A DNA stretch of 64,000 nt from Mobula hypostoma. Taxonomy: Eukaryota. Positions 1,760 to 63,479 of the stretch are shown one piece after another. Under the pieces are notes generated by a model. It was not told the origin of the DNA. It saw nothing but the letters and a program-made list of their open reading frames with translations, and searched no databases. The position numbers and the translations under genes were made by a program. The stretch's first letter is position 1, and the number at the start of each line of letters is the position of its first letter. The DNA is taken from NCBI RefSeq assembly GCF_963921235.1, contig NC_086107.1, forward strand, positions 98,706,001 to 98,770,000, in the 5' to 3' direction.

Positions 1760-1978
1760 CTGGAGGAACTCAGCAGGCCTGGCAACATCTATGGAAAAGT
1801 GTAAACAGTCGATGTTTCGGGCTGAGAGCCTTCATCAGGACTCATGAAGAAGGATCTCGGCCCGAAACGTCGACTGTTTACTCCTTTCCATAGTTGCTGC
1901 CTGGCCTGCTGAGTTCCTCCAGCATTTTGCATGCGTGGTGCTTTGGATTTCCAGCATCTGCAGATTTTCTCATGTTTG
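1760..1978. mobile_element. Palindromic Penelope-like terminal-repeat derivative with two opposed degenerate hammerhead motifs
   Basis: 1760-1922 is an imperfect inverted repeat. Minus strand reads AGTC-CTGATGA-AGGCTCTCAGCCC-GAAA-CATC-GACTG (1806-1842); plus strand reads ATGAAGA-AGGATCTCGGCCC-GAAA-CGTC-GACTG. Confidence 0.75.
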
Positions 1979-3202: not shown

Positions 3203-3877
3203 TATATTTTTAGATCTGTTTACAGCTTCGATTTATTACACAATTCTGAATATGGGCCTAAATGTGCTGTTAAGGATTTTATGGAGTTGCGGGAGGGATT
3301 TCAATGGAAGAGAGCCATTCTGTCTCTGACATTAGTATGACTTGTTTCATTGACGCTTTGATCTGGGAATAAAAAGGTAACAGTTTCCAAGTCCTGCCAT
3401 TGAAAGGGGTGAATGCAGTCTGTCTGCCTGTGAGGCTCTGTATTTCACTTTCACCCCCTGGGTCATTGCCACTCACTCTGGGATGGTTCTTTCTCACATG
3501 CCACTATTTTTGTGCCCTGCGCTTTCAGTTGTCTCCCCGTTCCACATCGGAGCAGCTTCTCTTTATCCGCCATACCTAAACCTGGTGTAATCTTGTTCAC
3601 CGCTATCAAATCTCCCTTCAGCCTTCGTCGCTGCATGGAGAACAACCCGACTTCTCTAGCCTGAACTTGTAGCACCAATTCCTCATCCCTGGAACCGGTC
3701 TGGTAAATCTCTCAAGGACCCCCTAATGATTTCTAAAGTTTGTCTATCTACATTTGTTGTTGAATAAAGTTTCTGCATAACTTCCTTACCTTTGTATTTG
3801 AGATCTCTCTTTCTGAAATCCATGATCCTTCAAGCCTTGCTGACTCCTGTCTCAGTATTTCCTGACACTTTCTGTGA

Positions 3878-4387: not shown

Positions 4388-5964
4388 TGTGAACATGACA
4401 CCTCAGTCCCTTTGCACTGTGCTATTAAGCCTGTATTGCTTCTCCACATCCCTTCTAGCAAAATGTGATGATGGTTCATTGTTGGCATATGTGTCAAGGT
4501 ACATTGAAAATGTGTCAAATCATTACACAGTGCATTGACGTAGTACGAGGTAAAACAATAACAGAATGCAGAAAGATAGTGTTACAGTTGCAGAGAAGGT
4601 GCACTCCAGCAGACAAAGAGTGCAAGGTCGTAACCAGATAGATTATGAGGTCAAGGGCCTAATCTTCTTTTACTAGAGAATGGTCAGATAGTCTAATAGC
4701 AGCAGGGTAGAAGGTGCTTTGAGGCTGGTGGAGCATGATTCCAGGCTTTTGTATCTTTTGCCCAATCAGGGGAGAGAGAAGAGAGTATATTCAGGGTGGA
4801 TGTGGTGTTTGAGTATGATCGTTGCTTTACTGAGGCAGCGAGAAGTTTAGAGACGGACGGGAGGCTGTTTTTGGTGATGTTCCAAGCTCTGTCTGCATCT
4901 CTGCCGTTTCTCGTAGTTGTTGGCAGAGCCGTTGTCGTAGGATGCATCTGGGTCGGATGCTTTCTACGGTGCATCAATAAAAATTTTCCTTTGTGGGATG
5001 GGAGGCAGTCACTATGCAGAACCTGGTGGAGGGTCTCAGCCCGAAACGTTTATTCCCTTCCATAGATGCTGCCTGACCTGCTGAGCTCCTCCAGCACCTT
5101 GTGTGCATTGCTCTGGATCTCCAGCATCTGCAGTACCTCCTGTGTCTAAAGTTAGAAGTAAAGTTGTTAAATATATTCAGCCGATCAGGTTATATCTGAA
5201 AGTTACACGTTTAACTTGATGTTTCACCAGAGTTGGTGAAAAGTTATCAACCCGATCCTTAACCCTTTCTTTCCTCAGACACTGATTTGGTTTTTTCCAG
5301 AACTTCTTTGCTTCAATTTCAGATTTCTGGTGTGGGTGGTATTTTGTAGTTATGGAGAAGATCAAATTAATGAGGCAGTGAATAACTGACGCCTGGTGTT
5401 GGTTATTGAGGTTTGCACGTTATAGCTGAAGGGAGGGGAGCCGTACCATTAATTTGAGCCAGGTTAGGCCAGATTCCAATGTACTGAGTCTAGGTGAGGG
5501 GTAACCTGCAAAGAGAAGTACTTTGTCTCTTCAGAGGAATAAGAAAGCTGAGAGGAACAAGGGACTGACTGTGATATGATTTATAAAGGTTGCTTGGGTT
5601 TGCCAAATGCTATGGGAGGGGTTGAGGAAAGGAGGCTTTGGAAATGATGGCGCATTCAGAATTGTTTGACTTTGTACAAAACGCAAGCGGAAGGGAATTG
5701 CATTAGTGCAGTTTTACTGGACACAGTTATGGAAATTGAAGTTTTGTCTGTTTCAAACAGGATTGGGATTAAGTGCATTAACGGGCAAGAAGAGGAAAAT
5801 ATTCATGGGACATGCCGAAGAAAGAACACGGCATGAGCAGTGTTGAGCTAAAGGTTTACATCTTTTACATATCTCCTTCTGAAATCCACATCCATGCTTT
5901 TGTTAATTTCAAACTTGACCATTTCAATGCTTTCTTGGCCGGAATTCCACCTTCTCTAAAGTTC

Positions 5965-8634: not shown

Positions 8635-11600
8635 TCCGAATCAGGTTTAATATCACCCACGTATGTTGTGGAATTTGTTGTCTGGTGTCAGCAGTACAGT
8701 GCAATAGATAAAATTCAGTAAGAAATACATTGAAAATAAATTTTAAAAGTAGTGCAAAAATGGCATGTATACATTTCTAAATGGTAATAAAAGAGGACTG
8801 AGTGTTCTCATCTAAAAATAGTGAGGTAATGTTCATGCAACACTCATAAAACGCTGGAGGAGCTCAGCAAGTAATCTTCATGGGTTGGTTCATTGTTCAT
8901 TCAGAAATTTGATGGCGGAGCGGAAGAAGCTATTCTGAAAATGTTGAATGTGTGTTTTCAGGCTCTGATTGTGGTGATGAGGAAAGCGCATGTCCTGGAT
9001 GATGAGGGGTTGGGGGGTGGGACCTTAAAGATAGATGCCATCTTTCTTTTCAAATCTTTTTATTGTATATATAGGAAAAATAACATGAGTACATCGAAGT
9101 AACAACACTTACAATGCCTCAAAAAAAACCCCATCATCTTAAAGATTGAAAACAAAATTTTGTGATAACAAAAAAGACCTACTGAGCAGAAAAGTGAGAG
9201 AAAAAAAAAAGAGAACCCATTAGGTGTACAACCCCAGAACCATGCATCATACAAAAAGCTTCTAAAAATAAACATCAAACCGCCAGCAAAAAAAGAAAAT
9301 ATACTAAAAAAAATTTACAATTAGATCGTGGAAAGATTATATCAATTAACTCAAATGATAATAACGAGCAAATGAGCCCCATCTTTTCTCAAAATCAAAT
9401 AAAGGTTCAAAGGTTCGACTTCTAATTTTCTCCAAACTAAGACATAGCATCACTTGAGAGAACCATTGTGAGACAGTGGGAGCTGATGTATCCTTCCACT
9501 TCAACAAAATGGCCCTCCTGGCTATCAATGTAACAAATGCAATAACATGTTGGTCAGACACAGAAGTACTATAAATATTTTGAGGAACTATTCCAAAAAG
9601 CACAGTTAATTTATTAGGTTGTAAATTAATTTTAAGTGCTTTAGAAATTGTTGAGAAAACCAACTTCTAGAACTGTTCCAATATAGAACAAGACCAAAAC
9701 ATATTTGTCAGTGTAGCTATCTCAGTTTTATATCTATCACAATGACTATCAACATTAGGAAAGATTTTAGAAAGTCTCTCCTTTGTCAAATGATAACGAT
9801 GTACAATTTTAAATTGAATCAATGAATGGCTAGCACAAATTGAAGAAGAGTTAACCAACTTCAATATCCGCATCCAATCCTCCGTCATAAAAGTCAAATT
9901 AAGTTCCTTTTCCCAATCCTGTTTAATCTTAGACAAAGGACGTTTATCCCATTGTAATAATAAATTATAAATTCTTCCAATATAACCCTTAATCAAAGGA
10001 TTCATACTCATAATAGTATCTAACAGGTCAGCCTCCAATATGTAAGGGAAATTACTTAAATATTTTTGTAAAAAATGTCTAACTTGAAGGTATTGCAGAA
10101 AGTGTGAGTATGAAAGAGAATATTTATCAATTAATTGTTCAAAGGACATCAATCTATCTTCTTTAAATAAATCCAAAAAAGAATTAATACTTTTATTTTT
10201 CCAAAGTAGAAAAATTGGATCACTCAAAGAAGGCTTAAAGTAATTTTGGTAAATTAAACTACAAAGTTTAAATTTTTTAAGATTAAAAAAATTGCGGAAC
10301 TGGAGCCAAATTTGTAAAGAATACTTAATCACAGGATATAGGTTTAAATTAACAACTTTACCTAATTGCATAGGTAAAGGAGCCCCCAATAATGAGGTTA
10401 AATAAAACTGTTTTACAACTTTTAGTTCCAGGTCTACCCAAACTGGCCGATCACTCTTATCAACCCAGTATAACCAAAAAGACATATATCGCAGATTAAC
10501 AGCCCAATAATACATTCTAAAATTAGGCAAAGCAAGACCTCCATCCTTTTTCAATTTTTGTAAATGACATTTACTAATTCTTGGTCTTTTATTATTCCAA
10601 ATAAAAGATAAAATAATAGAATCAATCTGATCAAAAAACTTCCTAGTCAAAAAAACAGGAATATTCTGAAATAAATATAAAAATTTCGGTAGAGTCATCG
10701 TTTTAACTATATGAATACGACCAACAAGTGAAAATGTAAGTGAACTGCATCTACTAAATAAATACTTCATAGAGTCTACTAAGGAAACAAAATTAGCTTT
10801 ATAAAGATCCTTATTTTTTTTAGTAATTATAATACCTAAATATCTAAAAGAGTCTGAAACTTTAAAAGGAGTATTATCATATTTAGAAACAGAATCATTT
10901 AAAGAAAACAATACACTTTTACTAAAATTAATTTTATATCCTGAAAAACCTCTGAATTCATTAAATAGTTTTAGCAGGGCAGGAATGGATTCATCAGGGT
11001 TAGATATATAAACCAATAAATCATCAGCATGAAGAGAGACCTTATGCATGGTCTCATTCACAAAGATCCCATGGATATTTTTAGCCTCATGAAGAGCAAT
11101 AGCAAGGGAGATGGATGCCATCTTTTGAGGCATTGCCTGTTGAAGATGTCCTCAGTGCTCCGGAGACAGTTGGCCGCGACGGAACTGGCTGAGATTGCAA
11201 CTTCCTTTGGCTTTTTCCGATCCTATGCAGTGGCTCCTCCATAGCAGGTGGTGATGCAGCCAGTTAGAGTGCTCTCCACAGTACATTTGTAAAACTTTGC
11301 AAGTGTCTTTGGTGACATATTAAATCCCCTCAAACTTCTAATGAAATACAGCCACTATCATGCCTTCTTCAGAACTTTTTCAATATTTTGAGCCCAGGAT
11401 AGATCATCAGAGTTGTTGACACCCAAGAACTTGAAACTATTCACCTTTTTCACTGCTGACCCCTCGACTATGACTGGTGTGTGTCCCTTTGACATACCCT
11501 TCCTGAAGTCCGCCATCAATTCCTTGGTCTTATTGCGGTTCAGTGCAAGGTTGTTGTTGTGACATCGCTCAACCAGCTGATCTGTCTCACTTCTGTACTC

Positions 11601-11900
11601 CTCTTCGTCACCATCTGAACCTCTGCCAACAATAGCTGTGTCATCGGCAAATTTATAGATGGTGTTTGAGCTGTGCCTGGCCACACAGTCATGGGTGTTG
11701 AGAGGGAGAAGCTCAAGCACGCATCTTTGAGGTGCGCCAGTGTTGATTGTCAGCGAGGAGGGGGGTGTTATTTCTGATTCGCACTGACTGTTTCTCTCAA
11801 TGAAGTAGTCAAGGATCCAATTGTAGAGGGAGGTACGGAGGCCCAAGTTTTGAAGCTTGTTGATTAGTACTGAGGGGATGATGGTGTTGAATGCTGGGTG
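8635..11900 (-). mobile_element. Rex1/Babar-type LINE fragment (RT: ..KFADDTAIVG..LNRNKTKELMADFRK) split by an L1 insertion
   Basis: ORF 11358-11846 carries RT motifs (TGAPQRCVL, FADD); the sequence resumes colinearly on both sides of 9046-11108. Confidence 0.75.
9046..11108 (-). mobile_element. 5'-truncated L1-clade LINE (ORF2 RT C-terminal half + zinc-knuckle region)
   Basis: ORFs 9667-11133 and 9346-9663 are in one frame split by a TAG. KVSLHADDLLVYI (YADD variant), GGLALPNFRMYYWA and MFWSC motifs; AATAAA/A-rich tail. 17-bp TSD AGAT(A/G)GATGCCATCTTT at 9029-9045 and 11109-11125. Confidence 0.9.
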
Positions 11901-13148
11901 CCTTCTTGCTGCTCACTGACCTGATTTGGCTCCTGGTAAAGCAACATATTTATTTCAGAATTCCCAAGTTCCATGGCCTTGCTCCTCTTCAGCAGCCTTC
12001 CTTTTGATACATCTTCATTTCTGGACTCTTGACTTTAATTGCTCCTCTGTACAGCAATGTCTCCTGCTGGTGGTGCTTGGAAATCTGCACCCGCCTCCCT
12101 AAGCACCTCTTCCATCCTTAAAACTCTCCTTTTGCTGATCCCTTTTTGATTTAAGCTTGTTGTCACCTTATTTTCTCCTCTGGGTTGGTTCCAATTTTTA
12201 TCTAATTACTTCCTTTCAAAATGTGTGGAACTTTTTCTGCTGTTTAAGATGCTAAAAAAAAACCCACAGATAAAGAAAGATTGGCGAGTACGAGGAAATC
12301 TGCAGATGCTGGCTGCCTGGCCTGCTGCGTTCACCAGCATGTGCGAGTGATGTTTTTCAAACGTTATACCACAGTTGTTGTTCGCAGCATATATAAATGA
12401 CTTGGATGAGAATGAGGATATGAATAGTAATTGTGTAGATGAGATCCTCCAAGAGAACCACAACCTTTTAGTTAGGTTTGGAGGCTTGCATTGCTCAATA
12501 ACCAAGAGAGCTATGTTGGCTGGAGTCAGGGCTTTATATTTTGGCTCTTGGTAGGATCACCCATGTTAATCAGGTCAGAGGGTAGAGGATAGGCTCAGAG
12601 TGGCCCACCGATTCTCCAGGTTCGGGGGTTCAGCTCAGGGCTAACAACCTTGACTGGTAAAACAGAAACTGTTACGGAAACAGCAATGAAGAACCCTTCT
12701 ACATCTGTGTGCGGCAGTATTCCCAAGTCACCACCCAAGACTTGCACGACTGACAGTGAACCGAGAGGAAGCTACTTACACGGTGACAGGAGCTGTGAAC
12801 GCCACCAGGGATGGAGGATGTCCACTGCTGCCCTAAGCACCTGCGGTGTTACCGGCAGAAGGAGAAGACGAGATGAATGGTGCAGCTATGGGCAGTGAAG
12901 GAGCATAGTGGGAGATAGATCAGCTGGGAAATTGGTTGTAATGGTGGCAGATAGAGATTAACTCAGACAAGGGTGAGCTAATGCATTTTGTGAGATCGAA
13001 TTTGGGTAAAGCATGGAGGAAATATCAGGAAGTCTTGACGTACGGAGAGACCTTGAGCTCCCTGAAGATGGACGGGGTAATGTAAAAAGCTTTGGAGGAT
13101 CATGTTGCAGCTGTACACAGAGACTCATTCCACCAAGGTGCAACACAG

Positions 13149-14450: not shown

Positions 14451-16949
14451 GACAGACATCTTAGCACCCACTCTGTTTTCTGTCCCATTTACACGCTTTT
14501 ACAATCTGAAGCCAGCTGACTGTCTCATTCTTCCAGCAGCCCCAGATGCATTCTCCAAACTTACTCATTATTCTATTTTGAGGTTCCTCATCAAAGACCT
14601 TTTGAAAGTAGACACATTACGCCTAAAACATTTGTTGTTCTCTTCTCCCTCTCACTCTTGGTTATTGTTTCAATAAAGTTCAATCCGATTGATCAAGCAA
14701 GGTGCAGTCTTTTGAAATCCATGAATGGGAGTAGTATGGAGGGCTATGGCCCAGATGCTGGTGGTTCGGCATGGACTTGATGGGCCGAAAAGCCTGTTTT
14801 TGTGCTGTATGACTCTTTGGAATATCATTACTCTGAAGTTCTTCTCTTTGTTTTATTGGGAATGTTATTATTTTCCTACTACTGATCTGATCTTAACTTC
14901 CCTGCTATGTTTATTTCCTTTCTGAAATGTAAGTGTTACTTTAGCTGCCCTAACATTCTCTGGTATTACATTATATCTAAATGCCTTTGTCATCCTCCCT
15001 GGATCTAAACCTGGAAATTTCCCTTATAGAGAGTTTTACACGTTGTTTACTGGATAGGAACGGCACCCTCTTGTCCTTTCACCTATTCATCCCGTTTAAT
15101 TAATATTAGGTTATTAAAATCTCTGATAATTTTCTGTCTTTATTCATTTCCCTAATTTGTTTGCATCCTTCTCCTCTTCTCTCCTACTGTTACATGTTTC
15201 TAGACTCTGTTACAATCAATCCTTCCCTCCGCTATCACATGATGCCAGATAAGTTCTGCCTCTCCAGCTCCCACTTCTACCCTCTGTATCCTTTCTAAAC
15301 ATGTTTACACTGTAACTAATTCTGAATCCTGAATTCTCTCTGGGCATAGGTCAGTCCTCTCTGCTGTATGGTGGATTTTTCCAGTCCCTGATCGCCTGCT
15401 TATTACAGACAGACACTATTGCTGTTTAGACAGAGAAGCTCATATTTAATAGGATTTCCTCTCACTTCGTGGCTAGATGTTGTTTTGGACTTCCAGCCTA
15501 TTTGTTTCCTTGCCGTCATTGTTCTCTTATTCATTCCAATGGTTTTCTTCCTGTTGTATTTATATTCTGACTGCATCTGTTTCTTGTTGATCCTTCTCGT
15601 TTCTTGCTGGTTGAAAGCCTTTGCTACCTTCCTGTTTACCTTTTCTACTGAGACAGACATCCTTTGCTATTTCTGTGTGGATTCGCTTTCTTCAATTTTC
15701 TCTTAGTGCACATCAGTTATTTCCCTTATTGTCTCAAAGCTTGCCAATGGTGTTAATCGATTTGACCTCTCCTTATGCCCTTTGTGCAAAAGAGCATCAC
15801 AGTTGGACCTCTCCTCTACCTGGTGAGGTTTGAAAATTATTTCACACCCTTCTGTATCAGATGTGGGACTAAATTAATCTTAGACAAGCGGATTCCCTTG
15901 TAGTCAAAAGCTATGTCCTTCAGCTATGAATTTCATTTAAATTTTCAATCGCTCAAACATGAGAAAGTCTGCAGACGGTTGAAATCCAGAGCAACACCCG
16001 CAAAATGCTGGAGGAATTCAGCAGGTCAGGCAGCGCCTATGGAAAAGAGTAAATCGTCGACATTTCAGGCCAAGGCACTTCAGGACTGGAAAAGAAAGGG
16101 GAAGATGCCTGAATAAAGAGCTGGGGGTTGGGGGGGGCTATCTAGAAGATGATAGGTGAAGCCGGGTGGGTGGGGAAGGTCAAGAGCTGGAATTACTCAA
16201 TGTCCACAGTATTCTGCAAGAAAAATTCCTGAAATTTGCAACCCTGAGAGAAGTAATATCACCTTATTTCATTGGTAGGGAGGTAGCTGTACCTCTAGTT
16301 TTAGACACCTCCACCAGGGCACCTGTTCTTGCAACATCTTCCCTGTCAACCCTACCAGACTTCAAAATGTTGTGCATCTTACTGAGACTTCTCACTCGTC
16401 TACGCCAGGAGTTCCCAACCTGGGGTCCGTGGCATAAAAAAAGACAGGGAACCCTTGATCTAAGCACAAGAGAGTATCTTCAGTCTTTATTCGAGGGAAA
16501 CTCCTTTCATCCTAATATTGTGAATCTTTAATGAGTTATCCCCAAATCATACATATAAAGGAGGAAACCAAAGGTGGTATAATATCAGCCCTTACTGCCA
16601 CTGCATGTTTGGAATGACTGTGGTGTAATCTCATTTACACGGTGGCTGTAAGGGTTTGCCGGTTAGGAACAATGGTACTGAAAGCCAATTGTCCTCTCAT
16701 CTCGGCACGTTGGCCACAAGTAACGCACTCTCTGTGGTGGTCTTTGCTTTTAGATATCTGCAACCCGGCTGTATTCAACTTCTGCTGTGAATACATGTAG
16801 AGTGCTTGTGATCCTCTTGCAGGGCCAAAATTCTGCATGCTGTGCGTGTTATTGATGAGATTTAAGTTCTACTACCTTCACACTCATAAGCAAACAGCTG
16901 GAGGAAGCTTGAGGTCAAGTGGCATCTTTGGAGACAAAAGAGATGGTTA

Positions 16950-17660: not shown

Positions 17661-19299
17661 AAAGCCTCTGGCACCACCTTCAGCTCCTTCCACTCCATTC
17701 TCGATGTTTCAGGTACCGATGCAGGGAGTCGACCCAAAGTGTCGACTGTTGCTTTGTTTCCACAGCTGCTGTTTGAGCCACTGTGTTCCTCCAGCAGTTT
17801 TCATTTTGCTCCAGATTACTTCCGTTGTGCCATCACTTGACTCCTTAACCCTACAGTGGCATAATCAAAATGTATGAAGCACGCGTACAGCGAAACAAAA
17901 TAGAGGTTTAAGCCAGAATGGAAAGAACATTTTGCGTTCATTGTTTAAAAATAGCCAACTGTTACCTTTTCTGCAAAGCACAAAAAGAATCAGATTTTTT
18001 TCATCAGAAATGAGCAAAAACAAAGTAATAACATCAGACATTTATTCCTGCCTTTAGTACACTTACTGCCTGTTACGCCACTGGTGTTTACGGCAGCAAT
18101 AAGGTCCTTCATCTCTGGTGGTGCTCAGGGCTTCCTTCTTCGTGTCAGTGGCTTCCTTGGTTTACACGACTGTCAGTCATGCAAATCCCGGGTAGAGACT
18201 CAGGAATACCGTCACACTCGGATGTAGAAGGATTCTTCATTGCTGTTTCCGTAACAGTTTTGTTTTACCTGAGCTGACCCCCCAAACCTGGAGGACTGGC
18301 GGACCACCCTTAGTCTGGCCTCTACCCTTTGATCTGTTTGGCATGAGTGACCCTACTAAGAGCCAAAGCCTGAAGCCCTGACTCCAACTAACATCGCTCT
18401 CTGGGTCATTGAGGCACACAATCCTCCAAACCACAAGGTTGTGGTCCTCTTGGAGGTGTCTTTAGTATGGAATATAGCAGAAGGAGCTGTTATTATTTCA
18501 TGGTATATCACTTGTATGAGACATTAGCTGTTTGGTAGCGAATTCAAGAATAATATTACAGAAATAAAGGCATTTTAATACAATGAACATAAAACCAACC
18601 AATAAAGCAAATTTAAGCTGTGATCCACAGTACAGAGAGGCTTATCTCCCAGATCAGTGCTTGAAGAATGCAAAAAAAACTGAAGGAATTCTGTAGTTTG
18701 TAATCTCACTCTTGACAAATCAAAGGCAATAAGCCTGAACTGGAAATGTGTTAATGTCTTCATTAGTGAAACTGAAAGAACAAATGCTGGATCTTAAAAA
18801 AGAAACTACTTGCAGTATTGACGTTAACGTGCACCTGACAAAGATTTGAAAATGATTGTGTACTGTTGCATAAACCTTTTGTTCTTTCAATAGATGCAGA
18901 AACTTCTGTGGCAGATTCTTCAAATGTCCCAGATTTCTCCTGCTTGCTTCATCCTTAGTGAACATCTTATGGACAGATATCTGAATTACTTATACGATCT
19001 TGAAATTGTCAGTTTCATCTGTTCAATTGAGAAAGTTCATCGACAGTTCAAAAATAGATCATAAAAAAGCTGAAACTTGAAGCCAAATGCTGTGACATTT
19101 TGTAAGATGATTATCAGCCAGCAATGTTTTAAATAACTTTGTACCACTGTTGGAGCCTGTCGGTGTTTTCCTTAAAGAAAGAGGCAAGTTTCATTGGCAA
19201 TTTGAAGATGAACAATAGATGCGGGGGCATGTTTTTCTACTGATACTGTGAGTCACCCAAGAACCTTCAAGTTGGGACTCCTAGGCACGAGAAAGATCA

Positions 19300-27770: not shown

Positions 27771-29467
27771 TAGTTAAAAATGAAACTGTAGTCATCGAAA
27801 AACAGGAAAAATTGCTTCAAAGGATTTGTGACTTGCTTTACCTCAGAAATTGCAGTGCCCAGTACTTTGTTTTGCCCTGCCATTTGGTAAATACATAATA
27901 TAAAGGGTTGAAAATGTTCATACTGATTGGTTGAGAGTTTGGCAGAGCACAAGATTTATAGTCACCATCGGAATTCTAATTCTATTTTCAAGGGTGTGGA
28001 TATTACTTGTAACAAGTAACAGCAGAAGGAACACATATATTCAGTGAACAGGTTTCAGCTCACAGAGCAACTTCGCTGTGTGGCTTGCGAATCAGTTCAT
28101 AGACAAATCATATTAGGTCCTGATGTTATGTGTTCAGAACTTTCCCATGTAGTGTTGCCGGCGAGTAGGAATTCCTACTTTCATTCCATTTTTACAGAAT
28201 ATAACAGGGACAGTCACCATTTATTTTAGGGTTTTCACCCAGGCAATGACTCTTTAATTAGCTTGCATGATATCAGCGCTAAATAAATCGTTCTCAAAAA
28301 TCTCTGGCAAACATCTGCTAAGAAGCTGGCGTTCTTGTGGCAGTTTTCACCACAGCCCCTCCTCAGCAGTAGGCTCACTGTATTCCCAGATTGCACTCTT
28401 CCCTGGGGCTAAGTTGTGGGAGAGCCACTTCCAAGTTTAAGGAGTTCCATTTACCCGTGGTGAATCCATACGGCTGCAGGTTCGTGGACCTTTCATGGAG
28501 ACGCTAGACTGCAGATGCTGGAATTTGGGGCAACAAATTTGAATTAACTCAGCGGGTCGAGCAGCATCTACGGGTGCGTGCTGATGGAATTGTCAACGTC
28601 TCAATCAAACCCTTGCGTCAGATTCCTGAGTTGAGGATTCAAACTGAAACATTGTCAGTTCCTTACCTCCAGCAGGTGCTGTACTTCTGGATATTTTTAA
28701 TTTGTGTGGGCCATTGTGTCAGTGCACTGAAAGATGCCAAGAGGGTTTCTGCTAACTACAGGGCTGACCACTCTGCAGCTTGGCCTTTCCTTTCATCTTT
28801 CATGCAAAGATACGCACCTATTTTTTTAAATTCCAAATTCGCCTGCGAGTTTCCAGCTTTTGTCCCCCATCAATACCACACCACTACTTAACATATTCCA
28901 CAAATAATTGTGGTTAATCAGTGGCCGTTACATACCTTTGAGAATTGCCTTTGGTATTCTTGAATGAAAGTGGACATTCTGGCCAGAGGACTTAATCAGT
29001 GGTTTTAAATGGGCCCTTATGGGTTGTTTTGAGATGTTATCAATTACAATTGCATAAATCCAAACCTAAATCAGAGTATTTTCTTTCAGATCTACAACAG
29101 TATCTTATTCAATGCTGCTACTCCTTTCGTTTTTTTTCTCTCTCTCTCTCTCCCCTCAAAGTGCTGAGGTCAGGAATATCAATTTCCCATTCCTGCTCTT
29201 GTTGGAGCCAGAACTCAGTTACTGCTTCCGCAGCTTAATCCTATGTGGCAAGCTGAGTTTGCAAACTACCAACCCCGTTTTGTCATCATGTTGGTAATGT
29301 ATTCATGACCAACATGTGCTTGGCATTCCTCCCTCATCCGATCATTCCTCAATATTCCAACTTCTTATTTTTCCACTCCTCTGTTAGAAGTGTGTACTTC
29401 CATGCATTCTATGTTGTGATGCACAATTTAAACTCAACAATTAGATACTAATGATTTTTTAACATTT

Positions 29468-34659: not shown

Positions 34660-37131
34660 CAGGTTTCCCCCACCATCCGAAGGTAGAGCATTCCAATGAG
34701 ACAGTTCGTAAGCCAAGATGTCATAAAGTGAAGAAGCAATTACCATTTATTAATATGGGAAAGATTTTTGAGCGTTTCCAGACCCAAAAAATAACCTACC
34801 AAATCATGCCAAATAACGCATAAAACCTAAAATAACAATAACATATAGTAAAAGCAGGAATGGTATGATAAATACACAGCCTATATAAAGTAGAAATACT
34901 TGTTGCAATCATTGAAGCACAGTCTAGCGCAGCGAAAATCTCACGCATGCGCTCTCGGTGGAAGCACTGTCGGCGCAGACGCTGTCAGCAGAAACACTCT
35001 CTCCAGTAACCTTTAAGCTATGAGGCTGCCAAATCATACCAAATAACACAAAAATACACAACCTATATAAAGTAGAAATAATGTATGTGCAGTGTAGTTT
35101 CACTTACGGGAATCAGGATGGTGTGTTAGGCTGAGTCGTGGGAAATTGGAGTGGTGGGAGGTAGAGGAGACTGAGGTGTCATCTCATCGTAGTCTATTTC
35201 CAATAGGGCAGGCAGGTCATCATCTTCTACGTCTGCCTGCCTCGATGTCAAAGGTCGAGGTTCGTCGTCTGCTGTGGCTGATGTGCAAGGCTTGAAAATC
35301 GACGGTATACTTGACTGCTGAGCCTCGCACATTTTTAGATCATAGAGTTCTTTGTAAGCCCTCAAAACATCCTGAAAACCTGCCCTAAACCTACGTGCCC
35401 TTTCAAAATTAAAGTCAATCGCAGCGAAAACCTCACGCAACTGCTTCACGTTCAGTCCCTGGACGACTTCATTTTCGCTACTGCGTTTGGTTTTGATTGT
35501 TATCCTTCCCTCTTGCAATTGCATCAGCTGTTCATCTGTCAATTCTTGGTCATGGGATGCCAAAACCTCCTCAACATCATCTTCGTCAATTTCCACAAAC
35601 CCAGCCTCCTTAACCAAGATCACTATTGTCGTATTCATTGTTGATGGTTCGAAGCCTTTAAAATCGTTCACTGCTTTGGGACATAGTTTCCTCCAAACGC
35701 CATTTCTCATCGAGACTCTTAGCCTATCGAGAGCATCTCCAATGTTGGTGATCGCCAGTTTTATATTGTAGTCTTTCCAGATCTCTAGCAAAGATGCTTC
35801 GGAGTTGCCCTCTCTGTCAATAGCACTTACAATAAAACGCATCACATTTTGCGTATAGTAAGCCTTAATTGTGGCTATTAGGCCTTGGTCACACGGCTGC
35901 AGCAACGATGTCGTATTCGGCGGTAAGAACGCAACACGAATGTTACCGCCATACTCGGTAATCTCAGGCGGATGAGCAGCACAATTATCGACAATCACAA
36001 GACACCTATTATCGAGGTTATTTTCTCTGCAGTATTTTTCAACAAAAGGACTAACGTATCTGCTCATGTACTCAGAAAAAAGCACTTGGGTGTTCCAACT
36101 GCTTGGATGTGAACGGAACACAACGGGAAGTGTTTTCTTATCAACGCCTTTAAGTGCCCTCGGATTTTCTGAATGGTACACTAGTAGAGGCTTAAGGACA
36201 GCATCACCAGTGGCGTTAATAATAGGCATTGGGGTAAACCTGTCCTTTGATGCCTTGTGTCCCTTAGCCTGTTTTTCTTCTTTCGAAATAAATGTCTTAC
36301 TCGGCAATTTTTTCCAATAAATTGCAGTTTCGTCACATTAAACACTTGCTTATAAGAATAACCACCTTCTGTAATTATTTTCTTCAGTTGTGCTGGGAAC
36401 CTTTCGGCAGCTTCAGTATCAGCCGAAGCACCCTCTCCGGTAAATGTTAAACTATGAAGCTGCCCTCGCCTCAGAAACCGATCAAACCACCCGTGGCTAC
36501 CTTTAAATTCCACTTTCGCAACACTTTCATCACCATCGGCCAGTGGCTTCTGTTTCAGCTTATTAAAAAGACTGACTGATTTCTCCTTAAGTATAAGATA
36601 ACTTAAAGGAACACCGCGTTTTGTACACCCATCAATCCACTCAAGCAGTAGACTTTCCATTTTATCCATTACTGGATGCCGACTAAGAGAGACCACTTTG
36701 CTACAAGCAGAACCAACAGTAACATCGGCAGCTTTCAAGATTTTTTCTCTCTGCGTAGAAATAGTGCGAATGGTGGATGCAGGCAAGTTCAACGCACAGA
36801 CCATGTCCTTACTTCGTTCGCCATGATCGAAATGCTTAATTATGTCTAGTTTTACGCTAAGTGTAATACCCTTACGAGCTCTTTTAGGCTTTTCTGATAC
36901 CGTAGAACTCATCTTGCTAACAGATGCACAAAATAAATCGAGATAGAGCACATGTTTAAGCAATGGCGGCTAGAAAACAGTTCCAGGGCAGGAGCTTGGC
37001 TGCTCGGGGCGCGCGCTGCTTTTCTTGTAACAGTGAAAAAACTTTCTGTTAGTGAAAACAGGATACAAATGTAGGTCTTTCGTAACAGCGAGGTTTCGTA
37101 AAGCAAACGTTCGAAAAGCGGGGGACACCTG
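34660..37131 (-). mobile_element. Full-length Tigger/pogo DNA transposon
   Basis: TA-CAGGTTTCCCCC... and ...GGGGGACACCTG-TA imperfect TIRs with TA TSD, enclosing a transposase. Confidence 0.92.
35126..36912 (-). pseudogene. Tigger/pogo transposase (HTH_psq + CENP-B HTH + DDE_1), single frameshift
   Basis: MSSTVSEKPKRARKGITLSVKLDII..FKGSHGWFDRF..VFN/[C]DETAIYWKKLPSKTF..VDNCAAH..LQPCDQGLI; 1-bp deletion near 36336. Confidence 0.9.
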
Positions 37132-37803: not shown

Positions 37804-38215
37804 CACAACACGCTGGAGGGACTCAGCAGGCCGTGGAAATGATCAGTCGACGTTTTGGGCCGGAACCCTTCGTCAGGACGGTAGAGGGAAGGGGCAGAGG
37901 CCCTATAAAGAAGGTGGGGGGAGGGTGGAAAGGAGAAGGCTGGTAGGTTCCAGGTGAAAAACCAGTAAGGGGAAAGATAAAGGGGTGGGGAAGCAAAGCA
38001 GGGAGGTGATAGGCAGGAAAGGTGAAGAAGGAATAAGGGAAAGCACAGTGGGTAGTAGAAGGAGGCAGAACCATGAGGGAGGTGGTAGGCAGCTGGGGGG
38101 GGGGCAGAGTGAAATAGGGGTAGAGGAAGGGAGGGGGAGGGAATTACCGGAAGTTGGGGTATTCTATGTTCATACCAAGGGGCTGGAGACTACCTAGATG
38201 GTATATGAGGTGTTA
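37804..38215 (-). mobile_element. 5'-truncated Penelope-like element (GIY-YIG C-terminus + terminal repeat with hammerhead motif)
   Basis: Minus strand encodes HLIYHLGSLQPLGMNIEYPNFR*, then a pyrimidine tract and a hammerhead-like motif at 37844-37881 (GAAA>AAAA). 14-bp TSD TAATTAAATATTTT at 37790-37803 and 38216-38229. Confidence 0.85.
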
Positions 38216-38390
38216 TAATTAAATATTTTGCTTCACATGAACAACTTCATGAAGTGGACTTGATCAGATGCTTTCTGGTATTGATATCAATGAGATTATA
38301 AACTCTCTCCCCCCCCCCCACCTCAAAAACTTCAAGTATGTTGAACTTTTTACAGGTGCACACTATCTCTTACAGGTTATCTCTGCAATA

Positions 38391-39739: not shown

Positions 39740-39959
39740 TATCTAGGTGTTCATTTTTTCACTGTTTATTCTTAAATACAAGCTTAAATAACTTGCTGGC
39801 AACAGAAACTGAGACAGAAAATATTGTCAACACTCGACAAGTCAGGCATTATCTATGGAAAGAGGAGTAGCTAATGTTTCAGCTTTAAGGTTGTTTATCA
39901 GAAGGGGAAAAGAAAAATGTTAATTGCCGGAAAGGTAAGGGGAAGGGTGGGTGGGAGAA

Positions 39960-40480
39960 ATAACCCATTTCAGTTCCCTTTCCCATTCCAACATGTCAGT
40001 CCACGGCCTCCTGTACTGCCATGATGAAGCCACACTCAGGTTGGAGGAGCAACACCTTATATTCTGTCTGGGTAGCCTCCAACCTGATGGCATGAACATC
40101 AATTTCTCAAACTTCTGGTAATTGCACCCCCCCCCTTCACCATTCCCCATTCCTGTTTTCCCCCTCTCTCCTATCTCATTACCTATCCATCACCTCCCTC
40201 TGGTGCTCCTCCTCCTTTCCACGGTCTTCTATCCTCTCCTGTCAGATTCCCCCTTCCCCAGCCCTTTATCTCTTTCACCAATCAACTTCCCAGCTCTTTA
40301 CTTCACCCCTCCCCCAGTTTCTCCTTGTACTTCTTCCTCCCCTCCCCCAACCTTCTTACTCTGACTTCTCATTTTCTTTTTCAGTCCTGATAAAGAGTCT
40401 CAGCCCGAAACGTCGACTATACGCTGTTTCATAAATGCTGCCTGGCCTGCTGAGTTCCTCCAGCATTTTGTGTGTATTGC
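39960..40480 (+). mobile_element. 5'-truncated Penelope-like element
   Basis: 39966-40121 reads HFSSLSHSNMSVHGLLYCHDEATLRLEEQHLIFCLGSLQPDGMNINFSNFW*. Hammerhead-like motif at 40382-40418 (CTGATAA variant). Confidence 0.85.
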
Positions 40481-41414
40481 CTTGAAATAATGTCCATGTT
40501 AGCTTAGGCCTGGGAAAGAAACTGAGAGAGTGAGTTGGTAATGGGGACAATTAGAGGATGACAAAAGTGTGATGGGTTATTTACAACAGGTCGGGGTGTG
40601 CTAATGAGGCTACACCGTGCTTTGATGGAACACATGAGTTGTGTTAGGCCTCATTATAACAGCGCGGGCCAGTGTGGGGTGGGGAATTAATGTGGCAAGC
40701 AGCAGGAAACTCGGGATTGCCCCATGACTGAGTGCAGGTTCTCCACAGAGCGGTCGTTCAATCTGCATGTCGTTTTTCTAAATGTGAAGATCACCTTGTG
40801 AACCGAATGCAGTGCACTAAATCAGAATTACCCCTGAATTGTTGCTTCACCCTGAACGACAGAGGTCAGGGGTGAAAGGTCAGTGGTCGCACTTGCTGAT
40901 ACAGGGGAAGAGTGATGCGGGACACAAGTGGTTGGTGGCGGTGGGGGAGTGTTGGACCCGGACTTGAAGGGAATACCATTTCCAAAGTGCTGAAGATGTT
41001 CTGGTGGTGGAATGTTGGAAATCATTTAGGCTGATTCACTGATGAATTAGTGTGGTCTTGCTGTCAGCCCCAGACTGACAAGCTGAAAAGGTCATGTGTA
41101 AACTGAAAAGCAACGTGGCTTCAAGCGCAGCCAGTTTTCTTGTTTAAGTTTACTTTTGACAGCAGGGAACCACAGTCACAATTTCACAACCTCATCTTCC
41201 TGGAAGAGGAGAACATACCAGAAGATGTAAGAGGTCCTGATTTTCTGAAAGAAAGGAATCTTGCAATGGTCTGTGTTAATCTGATGGTGTTAACCACAGA
41301 GGCCTTCCTGCTGTCAGCTTCAGGGAAAATCATTGTAAGGATTGAAGAGCTGCCCCTCTGGAGCATAGTGACTCATTGCAAGCTGCTCCCTGCAGAAATT
41401 CCTTCTATTATAAT

Positions 41415-42917: not shown

Positions 42918-43053
42918 CAAACAAGGGAAACTTTGCAGATGCTGGAAATCCAAGCAATACACACACACAATGCTGAAGGAGCTCAGCAGGCCAGGCAACG
43001 TCTATGGAAAAGAGTACAGTCGACATTTCGGGCCGAGACCCTTCAGCAGGACA
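42918..43053 (-). mobile_element. Penelope-like terminal repeat fragment with degenerate hammerhead
   Basis: Minus strand reads GTC-CTGCTGA-AGGGTCTCGGCCC-GAAA-TGTC-GACTG. Confidence 0.7.
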
Positions 43054-43518
43054 AAGGGAATCCCACATCTACTGCACACTGTCCTGCTAGAGGCTGGAGA
43101 ACTGCCCCACTAGACCATGGTGACTCAGTGCAGGCTGCTCCCTGCAGAAATTCCTTCTATTATAATTGACCTCAGTGCACTGTGTAATGATTTTATCTGT
43201 TTGAACTGTACGCAAGGCATGTGACTTCTAGTCTATAGAAGTTCGTCAAAGTTTTAGATGACCTGTCATATCTTTTAAAACTTGTAAGAAAGTAGAGGCT
43301 TTGATACTGGAATCAAATAAAGGGCAAACTCGGCAAAGGCACCAGAGTTCCTTCTCTGAAGGATGTAGTAAACCCGACAGGGTCTGGTCACCATAACTGA
43401 AACTGGCTTTTAGGAGATGACAGGGTTTTAAGAGCTGGAGCATATCGGTGGAAAATCAGCTGTAAAGTTTGTTTAGAAAGCTTACATCTAGCATGACTAA
43501 TAAAAACAGAAAATACTT

Positions 43519-43763
43519 AAACAACACACATCAAAGTTGCTGGTGAACGCAGCAGGCCAGGCAGCATCTCTAGGAAGAGGTACAGTCGACGTTTCCGGCC
43601 GAGACCCTTCGTCAGGACTAACTGAAGGAAGAGCTAGTAAGAGATTTGAAAGTGGGAGGGGGAGGGGGAGAGATGCTGCCTGGCCTGCTGCATTCTCCAG
43701 CAACTTTGATGTGTGTTGCTTGAATTTCCAGCATCTGCAGAATTCCTCGTGTTTACGTTTTTT
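43519..43763. mobile_element. Short Penelope-like derivative with inverted terminal arms
   Basis: Arms ~43522-43572 and ~43668-43718 are inverted; candidate TSD AAATACTT (43511-43518, 43764-43771). Confidence 0.75.
43583..43620 (-). ncRNA. Minimal type-I hammerhead ribozyme motif (catalytic core boxes intact; one stem II mismatch)
   Basis: Minus strand reads TAGTC-CTGACGA-A-GGGTCTCGGCCG-GAAA-CG-TC^GACTG: stem I, CUGANGA, stem II, GAAA, palindromic ACGU stem III, GUC cleavage triplet. Confidence 0.7.
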
Positions 43764-45020: not shown

Positions 45021-45433
45021 GTTGGAGGAGTAACACCTCATATACCGTCTGGGTAGTCTCCAGCCCCTTGGTATGAACATAGAATTCTCCAGCTCCGGTA
45101 ATTCCCTCCCCCTCCCTTCCCCTATCCCTATTTCACTCTGTCCCCTCCCCCAGCTGCCTATCACCTCCCTCATGGTTCCACCTCCTTCTACTACCCATTG
45201 TGCTTTCCCCTATTCCTCCTTTACCTTTCCTGCCTATGCCCTCCCTGCTTCCCCTCCCCCACCCCTTTATTTTTCCCCTTACTGGTTTTTCAACTGGAAC
45301 CTACCAGCCTTCTCCTTCCCACCCTCCCCCCACCTTCTTTATTGGGCCCCTGCGGGTCTTGGCCCGAAATGTTGATTGTTCGTTTCCACGGATGCTGCCC
45401 GACCTGCTGAGTTCCTGCAGCATGTTGTGTGTG
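45021..45433 (+). mobile_element. 5'-truncated Penelope-like element, same subfamily as 37804-38215 but in the opposite orientation
   Basis: LEE*HLIYRLGSLQPLGMNIEFSSSG; the 5' half of the hammerhead is deleted. Confidence 0.8.
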
Positions 45434-45872
45434 TTGGTACAGTTCCCCCCTTTCCCTCCTGCCCCTCCTAGTATTAGAATTCTAGCTCCCAATCGGTCCC
45501 ACACATTCACTTGCCCAGTGCCCCAGTCATTCAGTAGTGTAGGTGCTCCAAAAACCTCTGTGGTCTATATAATTGCTACTGGAGGTGTCCCACTAATGCA
45601 AAGACTAGGCAATTCCTTGCTCCATGCAACCAACAAACAGGCCGTCATAACATCTATTTACTAGTGACTCGCAAGTGATTCTGGCATGATTGCCCTCCTA
45701 CCCTCTATTGAGTGTGGGCAATTATAAAGTCTCTGATCTGCAGATGAGTTTCAGTTCCTCAGCTTTCTCAAGGTCCAGCAAAGTCAACTTACTTGTAGCG
45801 CTGAAAGAGTTCAATCCAAGCTCTTCCTTTAATCACTGAGCACCTTCACGAAGCATGTTTGTGTCTCCATAG

Positions 45873-46254: not shown

Positions 46255-46723
46255 TAGTACTGTGCAAAAGTCTCAGGCATATATGTAGAGCTAGGGTGCC
46301 TAAGGCTTTTGAACAATACTGTATTTGTCAATGTGGAACGGAGAGAGAGTTTGTAAATCTAGTGAGAGTGAAGGATGTCAGTAATGATGAGGGTAGAGCA
46401 CCCCAGGAGAGGGGTGGGACAGGTGGTAGGTAAGGAGTGATGGGGCAGAGGGTGGCACAAGTGCAGACACAAGAAGTCCAGAGACACCAGGCAAGGTCAA
46501 TTGGTTTATTGATCATTATGGAATATCTCTGTGGTGCTTCCCGCTTCCTCTCCTCTCCCGTCCCCTTTTTCCAGCCATGATTCCCGTCTCCTTGCCCCAA
46601 TCCACAATAGACACCCATGTCAGAATCAGGTTTATCATCACTCGCATATGTCGTGATTTTTTTTTGCAGCAGTATAATACAATACATAAAATTACTACAG
46701 GACTGTGCAAAAGTATTAGCTTT

Positions 46724-46766
<43 letters not shown>

Positions 46767-46788
46767 CTAAGACTTTTGCACAGCACTG
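46255..46788. mobile_element. Composite Tc1/mariner-type MITE, copy 3, with (TA)n(TG)n expansion
   Basis: TA-TAGTACTGTGCAAAAGTCTCAGGCA ... TCTAAGACTTTTGCACAGCACTG; same core as copies 1 and 2. Confidence 0.7.
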
Positions 46789-47759
46789 TGTAACAAGGCA
46801 AAGAAGTAGGAAAGAATCCTATTGAAATTAAAAGGATCGAAAGTTTTGGAAACTAAAAGCCAGCAGCAAAGATACCAGTGTTAAAATTGGTCACGCAAGC
46901 CTTAAGGAGTTATTAGTTTTATGAATATGAAAATCAGTGGACCCTGTTACTCTGAGGTTGTGGCTGCACACTTTCTGTCAGCTGGTGGCTGGTTTCTGTG
47001 TCATTCTGCACGTTAGACTTGCAGACTGCAGCTGTAACCTTTGTTATGGTTTGTATTTTAGTGCAAACATCTATGTAAATAGCTTTCACACTTCCTGTCC
47101 GTGTCAAAAATCTACAGGTTGTTTGCATTGACGTTTGTCCTCAACTTTGCATTTAGGATGCACCAGTTGATAGGGGAGAAGATAGATTCTTTTGTGGCTA
47201 TCTGCAGCAAATTGGATAATATAATTACACAAAAAATATAGTCCAATTCCCTGAGTCCATGAATGTTGCAGCAGTCTGCGGTCAAACTCAATACAGCTTG
47301 ACTTTTGCCAAATGAACACTAGGGGCAGCACTGACTCCAGTATGGAATCCGTGCCCCCACTGGTGGTGTGCCCGACTCCAACGCCTCCCCCGGGTGGCTG
47401 CAAACAGGTGACACTGCGGCTTGAGGCCTAGTCCTTGCTGTGACCAAGGCCGTTAGCTCTCCGCTGTACCTTGAATAGCACAATAGAATCTTATGGAACT
47501 TTCTGAAAAGGTAGATGAGGCCTGTGGTGAAGAATGACTCCTCTGGCTGTTGAGAGCTCACTTGTTCTCCCAGTAACACAAGCGTCAGCCTAGAAAACAT
47601 CCTGGACTTGAACCCATCTCCTGGAATTATCACTGCCCTCCTGTGTAGTTTTACAATCTATTTCCTGAAACTGTCAGTGAATCTTCTGAGGCAGCATATT
47701 GTTGAATAATATTGACATGTAATCATGTATTAATATATTAGATTGGAGACGAACAAATG

Positions 47760-61056: not shown

Positions 61057-61279
61057 AAGCAACACACGTAAAAGTTGCTGGTGAACGCAGCAGGCCAGGC
61101 AGCATCTATAGGAAGAGGTACAGTCAACGTTTCGGGCAGAGTCCCTTCATCAGGACGAAGGGTCTTGGCCCGAAACGTCGAATGTACCTCTTCCTATAGA
61201 TGCTGCCTGCACTGCTGCGATCACCAGCATTTCTTATGTGTTGCTTGAATTTCCAGCATCTGCAGATTTCCTCGTGCTT
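61057..61279. mobile_element. Palindromic Penelope-like derivative with back-to-back hammerhead motifs
   Basis: 61057-61246 is a long inverted repeat; flanking direct repeat GAGTTAGA(A/G)TTAA (61046-61058, 61280-61292). Confidence 0.8.
61121..61156 (-). ncRNA. Minimal type-I hammerhead ribozyme motif (core boxes intact, GUU triplet, 3-bp stem I)
   Basis: Minus strand reads GTC-CTGATGA-A-GGGACTCTGCCC-GAAA-CG-TT^GAC. Confidence 0.6.
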
Positions 61280-62066: not shown

Positions 62067-63479
62067 TTGTGCTCGCTGCCTCCCCTCTCCACTCTCAGTC
62101 CTGACACAGGGTTTCGATCCAAGATGTTAGCAGTTCCACTCACCAGCCCCTCAAATGGTGCCTGACTCTGAGTTCCTCCAGTTGGTCCAGATGTTTGCAT
62201 CTGCAGTCCCTTGGGCCTCCAACTTTTCACGTCGACCTGGAACAAGTTTTGCCCTTTATTGAACTTTTTACCATTGCTGGAAGCACTGAGGCTAATCTCC
62301 CAAACAGTGCTGAAGGAAGCTGCTGGCAATCAAATCTGAAGAAAACAACTGGCAATCAGCCATTTGGCCAAAAGGAAGTCCTCCAAATCTGGGGCTTGCT
62401 GACAGATGGCATTATGCCTGTCTCTATGCTTTGTTGCTATACTTCAAAGACCAGTCTCGATAAAGTTTTTTCATATCACACTGGGAAAATTACCTTGTAT
62501 AGGAGTGGATCCCTGTGCATTTTAATCAGAATTTTTAGCAGATCAGGAGGCAAAGGAGAAAGCAAATTTTTCTATAATTTCAAAAAATTATTTCTTAATG
62601 TCTTGATATGCTTACATTGCAGCCTGTGATAGGAGCCATAGCTCTACCTTCTGTCAAACCCTGTCAATGTATTTCCACAGTAGGACGTCATTGCCTGAGG
62701 CCCAGTTGTCTCGACAATGTTGCACCCAATTCCAATGGACAGAGAGACAGTGAGACTGTTCTGTCCTGTTGTTGAGTTAAGACGGCAGGCAGTGTTGGAA
62801 GCAGAACAGTTGGTTCCTGATATACTAAATGATTTTGCAGTAATCCCAGCAAAGAAGCAGGACATTACAGCTGAATGGTTCCTGCTGAGGATACAGTTAT
62901 CTCAGAGCAACTGTTTTCCAGGTGATCCTGGCAGTTTCAGAAAGTACTGGTTTATTAAGTTACAGTGAAAAATTTGTGTCGCCTACAGTTTATACGGAAC
63001 AAATCATCATACAGTGCATTGAGCTAGAATAAGATAAAACAATAGTTTTCCTATGTACAATACGCCACTGGCGTTTAGAGCAGAAAAAAAAGGTATCCAT
63101 CTCTGGTGGTGTTCAGGGCTTCCTTCATCACGTCAGTAGCTTCCTTTCAGTTTTCACTACTGTCAGCATGTAAGTCCCAGATTGAGACTCAGGAATACCA
63201 TCACACTCAGATGTAGAAGGAATCTTCATTGCTGTTTCTGTAACAATTTTGTTTTACCACTCAGGGTTGTTAGCCCTGAGCTGGAGCCCCTGAACCTGGA
63301 GGACCGCTAGACCACTCTCAGTCTGGCCTCAACCGCTTGCCTTGTTTGGCATGGGTGACCCTATCAAGAGCCAAAGCATTGAGCCCTGACTCCAGCCACC
63401 ATAGCTCTCCAGGGTCACTGAGGCACACAAGCCTCCAAACCCTACAAGATTGTGGTCCTTCTGGAGGAAAACAATAGCA

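Follow-up and report, generated by a model that had tools for sequence, protein, structure and literature searches.

The window (the whole 64-kb stretch of Mobula hypostoma DNA analysed here) contains a dispersed family of short, 5'-truncated repeats. The longest of them run from the end of a GIY-YIG open reading frame (ORF) through an untranslated region (UTR) into a compact motif of 38 nt and a tail (Table 1). A first-pass annotation had singled out the copy of this motif at 43583..43620 on the minus strand and proposed that it belongs to a family of minimal, dimer-dependent hammerhead ribozymes in the terminal repeats of Penelope-like elements (PLEs). Other mobile elements share the window. 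Two overlapping open frames at 35126-36969 (-), with DDE_1 (E 5e-29), CENP-B_N and HTH_Tnp_Tc5 domains, represent a pogo/Tigger-type DNA transposon, apparently frameshifted, and open frames of 494 and 184 aa at 9667-11912 (-), which gave partial RVT_1 matches and no tblastn similarity to the PLE relative P0001 described below, belong to another retroelement, probably a LINE.

Repeat family and its copies in the window

Copies were located with Blastn, for which three long copies served as queries, and with an nhmmer profile built from 11 aligned copies. The profile search of the window returned 11 strong copies and 2 older relics. All seven copies listed by the first-pass annotation were recovered by the two methods, as were the five positions that it had described as relics (5010-5114+, 15988-16097-, 17711-17802+, 45335-45438+ and 62092-62181+). 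The searches also brought up a copy absent from that list (61142-61246, plus strand; also delimited as 61158-61249), which lies head to head with the minus-strand copy at 61121, together with tail-only fragments at 43669-43719+, 12312-12349+ and 8836-8870- and weak relics at 28540-28603- and 39832-39881-.

Pattern counts were compared with shuffled sequence. The 18-mer GGCCCGAAACGTCGACTG, which spans the 3' strand of stem II through the 3' strand of stem I, occurred nine times in the window with ≤3 mismatches (1806-, 1859+, 37844-, 40402+, 43017-, 43583-, 45361+, 61121- and 61167+) versus 0 in 100 shuffles, while the pattern CTGANGA-N(8-20)-GAAACGTC had a single exact match, the 43583..43620 copy, and again 0 in 100 shuffles. 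Contigs of four public sequencing runs, from three organisms, pile up on the pieces of the element, which indicates a high copy number. A metagenome collection was considered as a source of further family members and rejected, since its 27 matches to the box pattern all came without stems I and II or tail and are thus chance matches; the same pattern had 0 matches in a viral collection.

Table 1. Positions and condition of the repeat copies in the window
Feature	Position	Strand	Content
Flagged minimal type-I hammerhead motif	43583..43620	-	Invariant core bases all kept; 10.1-11.1 pair broken (G.G)
Pair 1, minus arm	1760..1851	-	Hammerhead (core kept; stem II C.C mismatch; ACGU→ACAU) and short tail
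Pair 1, plus arm	1842..1975	+	Begins within CUGANGA box; stem II, GAAA, GUC, tail, tail extension
Pair 2, minus, short-tail arm	43522..43672	-	5'-truncated PLE 3' end: ~50 nt pyrimidine-rich UTR, hammerhead, ~60-nt tail; 3' end at 43522 taken from contigs diverging there
Pair 2, inverted partner arm	43673..43760	+	Tail only, with 30-40 nt tail extension
Pair 3, minus arm	61060..61156	-	Hammerhead core kept (C17→U; stem II 3 bp), short tail
Pair 3, plus arm	61158..61279	+	Begins within box 1; tail and extension
Longest copy	39888..40482	+	~78 last GIY-YIG ORF codons (39888-40115), ~260 nt UTR, hammerhead 40382-40419 (G8→A), short tail
Copy with ORF C-terminus	37804..38224	-	C-terminus 38159-38224, UTR, hammerhead 37844-37881 (G12→A)
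Copy with ORF C-terminus	45022..45438	+	C-terminus 45022-45087, UTR, badly decayed hammerhead (box 1 lost), tail
Copy from about the hammerhead 5' edge	42925..43059	-	A6→C; ACGU→AUGU; tail and extension
Relic	5010..5145	+	Mutated box 1; deletion of the stem I 3' strand; tail with extension
Relic	15955..16190	-	~130 nt upstream UTR; 3-nt deletion in box 1; tail and extension
Older diverged relic, related subfamily	17711..17802	+	nhmmer E 1.7e-11
Older diverged relic, related subfamily	62092..62181	+	nhmmer E 1.4e-5; core boxes now non-canonical

The minus arm of pair 1 adjoins a (GA)n(CA)n microsatellite. Two PLE 3' fragments, 37894-38215 (-) and 45031-45353 (+), are 91% identical across 324 nt, begin at the same position of the element and face away from each other at a distance of 6.8 kb, with three other PLE copies in the interval; nested insertions may later have split an old inverted pair. 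The relics at 62092-62181 (+) and 28540-28603 (-) have in common CTGAC(A/G)C for CUGANGA and AAGA or GAGA for GAAA; they are either heavily decayed or members of a separate, older PLE subfamily whose core has changed.

Hammerhead anatomy and decay

Read on the minus strand from 43620 to 43583, the flagged copy consists of the 5' strand of stem I (5 nt), CTGACGA, an A, a 12-nt stem II hairpin, GAAA, CG, TC and the 3' strand of stem I. The majority consensus of the 11 copies has a 5-bp stem I, CUGAUGA, an unpaired A, a 4-bp stem II, GAAA, CG, UC and the stem I 3' strand. Its box provides C3-U4-G5-A6-N7-G8-A9, its stem II is formed by G-C, G-C, G-C and U.G with a 4-nt loop, and the positions before stem I read A15.1-C15.2-G16.2-U16.1-C17 in hammerhead numbering, such that a self-complementary ACGU stands in the place of a helix III hairpin and is followed by a GUC site. 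Among 10 aligned full-length motifs the A following box 1 was nearly invariant, and the 10.1-11.1 pair was G-C in 8. Stem pairing held in 79.5% of 83 cells and fell to 17-46% when the partner was slid by 1-3 columns, a control that is biased toward the structure derived from the consensus.

For the minimal hammerheads (min-HHRs) of PLE terminal repeats, four traits have been listed: consensus families within one genome, a base placed between 9 and 10.1, G10.1-C11.1 pairing and a palindromic 15.2-16.2 (Cervera and de la Pena 2014, PMC4209133). The window family shows all four. The proposed hammerhead anatomy was thus borne out by the 11-copy consensus and by a point-by-point match to the PLE min-HHR class. 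The choice of 43583..43620 as an example was sound as to coordinates and core, but the copy departs from the consensus at the closing pair of stem II, where 10.1-11.1 is G.G and not G-C. Likeness to PLE min-HHRs extends to the type-I topology, the 5-bp stem I, the unpaired base A9/10.1 and the G10.1-C11.1 pair, to the palindromic 15.1-16.1 tetrad where a helix III hairpin would stand, to the PLE terminal location, and to the many dispersed truncated copies and opposite-strand pairs (PMC4209133). Two differences are the stem II of 4 bp, as opposed to 6-8 bp in the PLE motifs of Schistosoma and Drosophila, and the cartilaginous-fish host, a group unnamed in the main text and one supplement file of PMC4209133; min-HHRs are known there from Xena, Poseidon and Neptune elements of fishes and from coelacanth, Xenopus and reptiles. 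With Rfam Hammerhead_1 and the type-I hammerheads of newt, Schistosoma and retrozymes the motif shares the catalytic core and the topology open at stem I, whereas it lacks both loop-loop tertiary contacts and a helix III hairpin. In canonical metazoan hammerheads, too, helix III is weak and the ribozyme works in dimeric form (PMC4209133).

The Infernal hammerhead search suggested by the first-pass annotation, run with Rfam on the window, returned no hammerhead: cmscan with Rfam release 15 gave none at gathering thresholds, at E ≤10 over the whole window or at E ≤10 on the 86 nt around the flagged copy, and the matches in the window at E ≤10 were microsatellite hairpins and noise. The Rfam hammerhead models presumably miss the motif since they need a helix III hairpin. 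Covariation in the stems, which the annotation had also proposed to look for, was not seen in the window copies (none of the 9 stem pairs had a change in both partners), a result that is expected for decayed copies of near-identical masters and hence uninformative for the masters. Stem pairing above chance was not found either, as 484 of 500 shuffles reached the observed 79.5%. RNAfold and cofold runs of the flagged copy as monomer, as homodimer and in an 81-nt context preferred other folds to the hammerhead; thermodynamic folding was set aside as a criterion, since a minimal hammerhead would not be expected to be the fold of minimum energy. With no covariation, Rfam match or fold support, the assignment rests on the complete motif match and on the element context.

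We consider it extremely improbable that the motif is an anonymous repeat resembling a hammerhead core by chance. The bare box pattern does arise by chance in very large data, as the 27 metagenome matches illustrate, and Rfam is without a match; in the window, however, the boxes, both stems, the bulged base, the G10.1-C11.1 pair, the palindrome and GUC occur all together, in an element class known for this variant.

Decay is extensive among the 11 copies. The exact CUGANGA box survives in 4 (1806, 37844, 43583 and 61121) and is mutated or truncated in 7, while GAAA (G12-A13-A14, then A15.1) is found in 10, with AAAA at 37844. The cleavage triplet is GUC in 7 copies, GUU in 2, AUC in 1 and deleted in 1; ACGU is intact in 7, and the remaining forms, ACAU (1) and AUGU (3), are all products of CpG decay. 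Every invariant core base is kept in 3 copies (1806, 43583 and 61121), each with a helix defect (Table 1; stem I as well as stem II is down to ~3 bp at 61121), and in the other 8 either an invariant core base is gone or the truncation point falls within the motif. CpG transitions account for many of the changes among copies. Core losses, helix defects and CpG transitions together mark the window copies as neutral, CpG-decayed relics rather than working ribozymes, most likely without ribozyme action. The further claim that this host carries a high-copy self-cleaving RNA family is upheld as regards the motif family, the hammerhead anatomy and the link to a PLE ORF, but with 8 of 11 copies core-damaged or truncated, self-cleavage can be true at best of master copies outside the window.

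We also assessed whether the core boxes are preferentially conserved, as the first-pass annotation had suggested checking. Differences from the consensus outside CpG sites were found in 7 of 94 core cells, 29 of 196 cells at other motif positions and 120 of 673 tail cells. The core thus changed least (7/94 vs 149/869 for all the rest, Fisher P = 0.012; P = 0.088 against other motif positions), where the test treats the cells of related copies as independent and part of the tail excess is a subfamily difference. One block of the tail was fully invariant, more so than the hammerhead, such that conservation alone does not single out the ribozyme. Given the dependent cells, the subfamily difference and this invariant block, the core-versus-rest result lends modest support to the reading that the master copies kept the hammerhead core.

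Element context and insertion footprints

The GIY-YIG C-terminal peptide LEEQHLIFxLGSLQPxGMNIxF, said by the first-pass annotation to lie upstream of three copies, was confirmed at 40041-40106+ (0 substitutions), 45022-45087+ (2) and 38159-38224- (6), in all three cases on the same strand as the motif, which follows ~260-300 nt downstream. A strongly pyrimidine-rich spacer of ~260 nt separates the stop codon from the motif in the best copy. A search with a 60-residue open stretch returned four proteins, among them sequences of Mobula hypostoma and Hypanus sabinus, relatives that by themselves make a ray or other elasmobranch the probable host. In P0001 (422 aa), YIDD is accompanied by a C-x4-C-x2-C linker and a GIY...YIG...R...H...E...N endonuclease, and the sequence closes with the peptide seen in the window; P0001 aligns over 365 aa with the C-terminal part of P0011 (50% identity, E 1e-117). 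P0011 (806 aa) in turn scored 29.4 bits for RVT_1 (cut-off 29.6) and 25.0 bits for GIY-YIG (cut-off 22.6) in Pfam, and 72 long relatives, mostly of 750-950 aa, were found. The link to a full reverse transcriptase (RT) and GIY-YIG ORF, which the annotation had called for, thus runs through relatives, from the peptide to P0001 to P0011, while the remnants in the window itself hold the last 17-78 codons only. No full-length or tandem unit with direct pseudo-LTRs, each carrying a hammerhead, was present in the 64-kb window, and we therefore infer the pLTR setting.

Between RT and endonuclease, just upstream of GIY-YIG, both P0001 and P0011 carry C-x4-C-x2-C. A CX2-5CxxC linker at this place is a feature of the Neptune and Nematis clades of PLEs in the available part of Craig et al. 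2021, and the CX4CxxC linker of the ray relatives accordingly favours a Neptune- or Nematis-type element over Poseidon, as far as protein sequence can tell. A tail that forms the start of the ORF, as in the Anolis carolinensis element PAc, was considered and drew no support: the peptide that the tail would encode was at no N-terminus of 76 relatives, which are only ~50% identical.

A piece of such an ORF also occurs in other surroundings. P0002 of Hypanus sabinus, named 'ATP synthase F(0) complex subunit C3-like isoform X1', has ~50 residues of a PLE GIY-YIG C-terminus at its end, through either exonisation of PLE sequence or an error of the gene model; P0070 of Narcine bancroftii resembles this case. 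As a separate observation, the ~260-nt spacer from ORF stop to hammerhead (40107-40381, plus strand, and homologues) consists almost entirely of pyrimidines on the sense strand, and its last letters, ...TTTTTCAG, directly adjoin helix I. This end looks like a splice acceptor and recalls the Drosophila virilis Penelope intron that ends at helix I, an idea weakened by the pyrimidine richness of the whole 260-nt UTR.

Insertions in the window carry the footprints of PLEs: 5' truncation, inverted partners, an extension on one arm and AT-rich target duplications. All PLE copies are 5'-truncated. Contigs of other genomic copies part from the window at 40475-40480 and 43522, which puts the 3' end ~60 nt past the motif, and six copies share an extension of a further 30-40 nt, whose motif had 6 matches in the window versus 0 in shuffles. 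Head-to-head inverted pairs with their tails outward lie at 1760-1975, 43522-43760 and 61060-61279; each of these three clear pairs has the extension on one arm only, and one further pair is weak. AT-rich target duplications flank the 61060-61279 pair (12/13) and the 39832-40482 unit (9/10, if 39832-39881(-) counts as inverted partner), with a candidate at the 43522-43760 pair (8/9). In the available part of Craig et al. 2021, PLE hallmarks include a 5'-truncated neighbouring copy in inverted orientation and a tail of 30-40 bp confined to one end, and min-HHR pairs on opposite strands 100-700 bp apart were described in PMC4209133.

The units of 100-220 bp could also be seen as an independent SINE- or MITE-like hairpin repeat that has only the PLE tail in common with the element and in which the likeness to a hammerhead has no function. 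Six of 13 copies start at the hammerhead 5' edge or a few bases from it, four of them as arms of two inverted pairs, and several units are near-symmetric hairpins (~190-220 bp) that come with target duplications, as would be expected of such a repeat. We hold this to be very unlikely, because the junction sequences differ from pair to pair and the pairs are thus separate events, not copies of one hairpin element; because other copies continue unbroken into UTR and GIY-YIG ORF; and because inverted 5'-truncated partners and one-sided tails are PLE features in the available part of Craig et al. 2021.

Within the PLE reading, the starts of copies at the edge of helix I may reflect either the 5' end of an RNA or a strong stop at helix I; the canonical cut would place 5' ends 32 nt further on. 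A pair with target duplication and one-arm extension would be one event in which both DNA strands prime reverse transcription from the two alternative internal start sites. Arms that meet near the hammerhead 5' edge, as in two pairs and perhaps two further single copies, would then point to a short template RNA with its 5' end at helix I, set by a transcription start, by processing or by a splice site (cf. Drosophila virilis Penelope) and not by the canonical GUC cut. The joint proposal, that head-to-head pairs stem from dual-strand priming at two start sites and that the usual template is a short RNA starting at helix I, strikes us as doubtful; if true, the insertion footprints record in vivo copying of this PLE. 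No public sequencing run recorded as RNA contained the stretch, and contigs of four public runs presumed to be RNA had no starts, ends or usable joints at the GUC site.

Mechanism, alternatives and relation to known systems

On motif and element context together, the motif is very probably a minimal type-I hammerhead of a PLE terminal-repeat region, represented in the window by decayed relics. The full unit would run from the end of an RT and GIY-YIG ORF through ~260-300 nt of pyrimidine-rich UTR into the 38-nt hammerhead and a ~60-nt tail, sometimes with the 30-40 nt extension. If a master element is transcribed as a tandem, two hammerheads could pair via the palindromic ACGU, build a shared helix III and so create two active sites, each cutting after GUC, possibly only together with the protein of the element. 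Dimer dependence and self-cleavage, both put forward by the first-pass annotation, would follow from the missing helix III hairpin and by analogy with the literature, in which the dimer pairing model is credited to Forster et al. 1988 (as cited in PMC4209133 and PMC6765202) and min-HHR dimer cleavage to Lunse, Weinberg and Breaker 2017 (as cited in the review PMC6765202).

A close experimental system is the PLE of Anolis, a Poseidon element (PAc; Frangieh et al. 2024, PMC11167929). Its ribozyme required the protein of the element, hammerhead mutants were without effect on in vitro insertion, and no RNA-seq reads started or ended at the hammerhead cut site; its protein cleaves and extends both DNA strands in vitro with a preference for AT-rich sites, and reverse transcription starts at two adjacent internal sites that delimit the tail (PMC11167929). 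The one-arm extensions and inverted pairs in the window agree with both-strand priming and two reverse-transcription start sites. Both elements have a hammerhead shortly upstream of the genomic insertion end, a choice of two 3' ends separated by ~35 nt (the 'tail') and AT-rich targets, and the evidence for both-strand priming by PAc fits the head-to-head arms seen here. In PAc, however, the hammerhead contains the ORF start and the tail corresponds to the initial 111-118 nt of the ORF (PMC11167929), whereas here the frame opened by the AUG of the box runs for 14 codons before a stop and the tail measures ~60 nt.

These same results allow for a motif that is borne by the PLE and selected for something other than self-cleavage, either as an RNA element to which the protein of the element binds or as a passenger parasitic on PLEs; folding or binding would then be what maintains the core. 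Such a role would accord with the unchanged insertion of the Anolis hammerhead mutants, the protein requirement for cleavage and the missing cut-site reads (PMC11167929), with the low in vitro activity of metazoan PLE hammerheads (PMC4209133), and with a tail block in the window conserved at least as much as the hammerhead; in the available part of Craig et al. 2021, moreover, hammerhead-free PLE clades proliferate well and 'HHRs may simply parasitize PLEs'. It is less easily squared with a consensus that keeps all catalytic bases, even those without a pairing role, with core bases that are the least changed class, or with the C3/G8 rescue, which shows real ribozyme chemistry in a vertebrate PLE (PMC11167929). 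We regard a role other than cleavage as unlikely, though as an alternative of some weight, and retain the min-HHR as the preferred reading.

The kind of ribozyme is not new. PLE minimal hammerheads have been described since 2014, including those in PLEs of fish, coelacanth, frog and reptile, with thousands in other vertebrate genomes. The first-pass annotation had left open whether this family was known; no min-HHR family of cartilaginous fishes was found named in the literature searched, including the main text of PMC4209133 and one of its supplement files, and a cartilaginous-fish PLE min-HHR family seems new to that literature. The available part of a 2026 preprint reports non-LTR retrozymes in one Chondrichthyes genome. 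The finding is real but ordinary and adds little that is new. Its interest lies in a class that Rfam scans miss entirely and that therefore stays unannotated, and in well-preserved inverted pairs, a natural record consistent with the both-strand priming and the pair of start sites observed in vitro for the Anolis element.

Two minor observations concern predicted RNA structure. RNAalifold on 1872-1975 (+) and five homologous tails predicted a 9-bp long-range stem between tail start and extension, with an inner 5-bp hairpin. With only one compensatory pair in six sequences the long-range stem was too weak to be put forward as a claim; the predicted structure may correspond to the stem-loop at the reverse-transcription start of the Anolis PLE. 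At 46692-46796 and 3126-3212, (TA)n/(TG)n microsatellite hairpins stand between an inverted repeat and gave weak, sub-threshold matches to the mir-5014, mir-297 and mir-3149 models; they are probably another MITE-like repeat.
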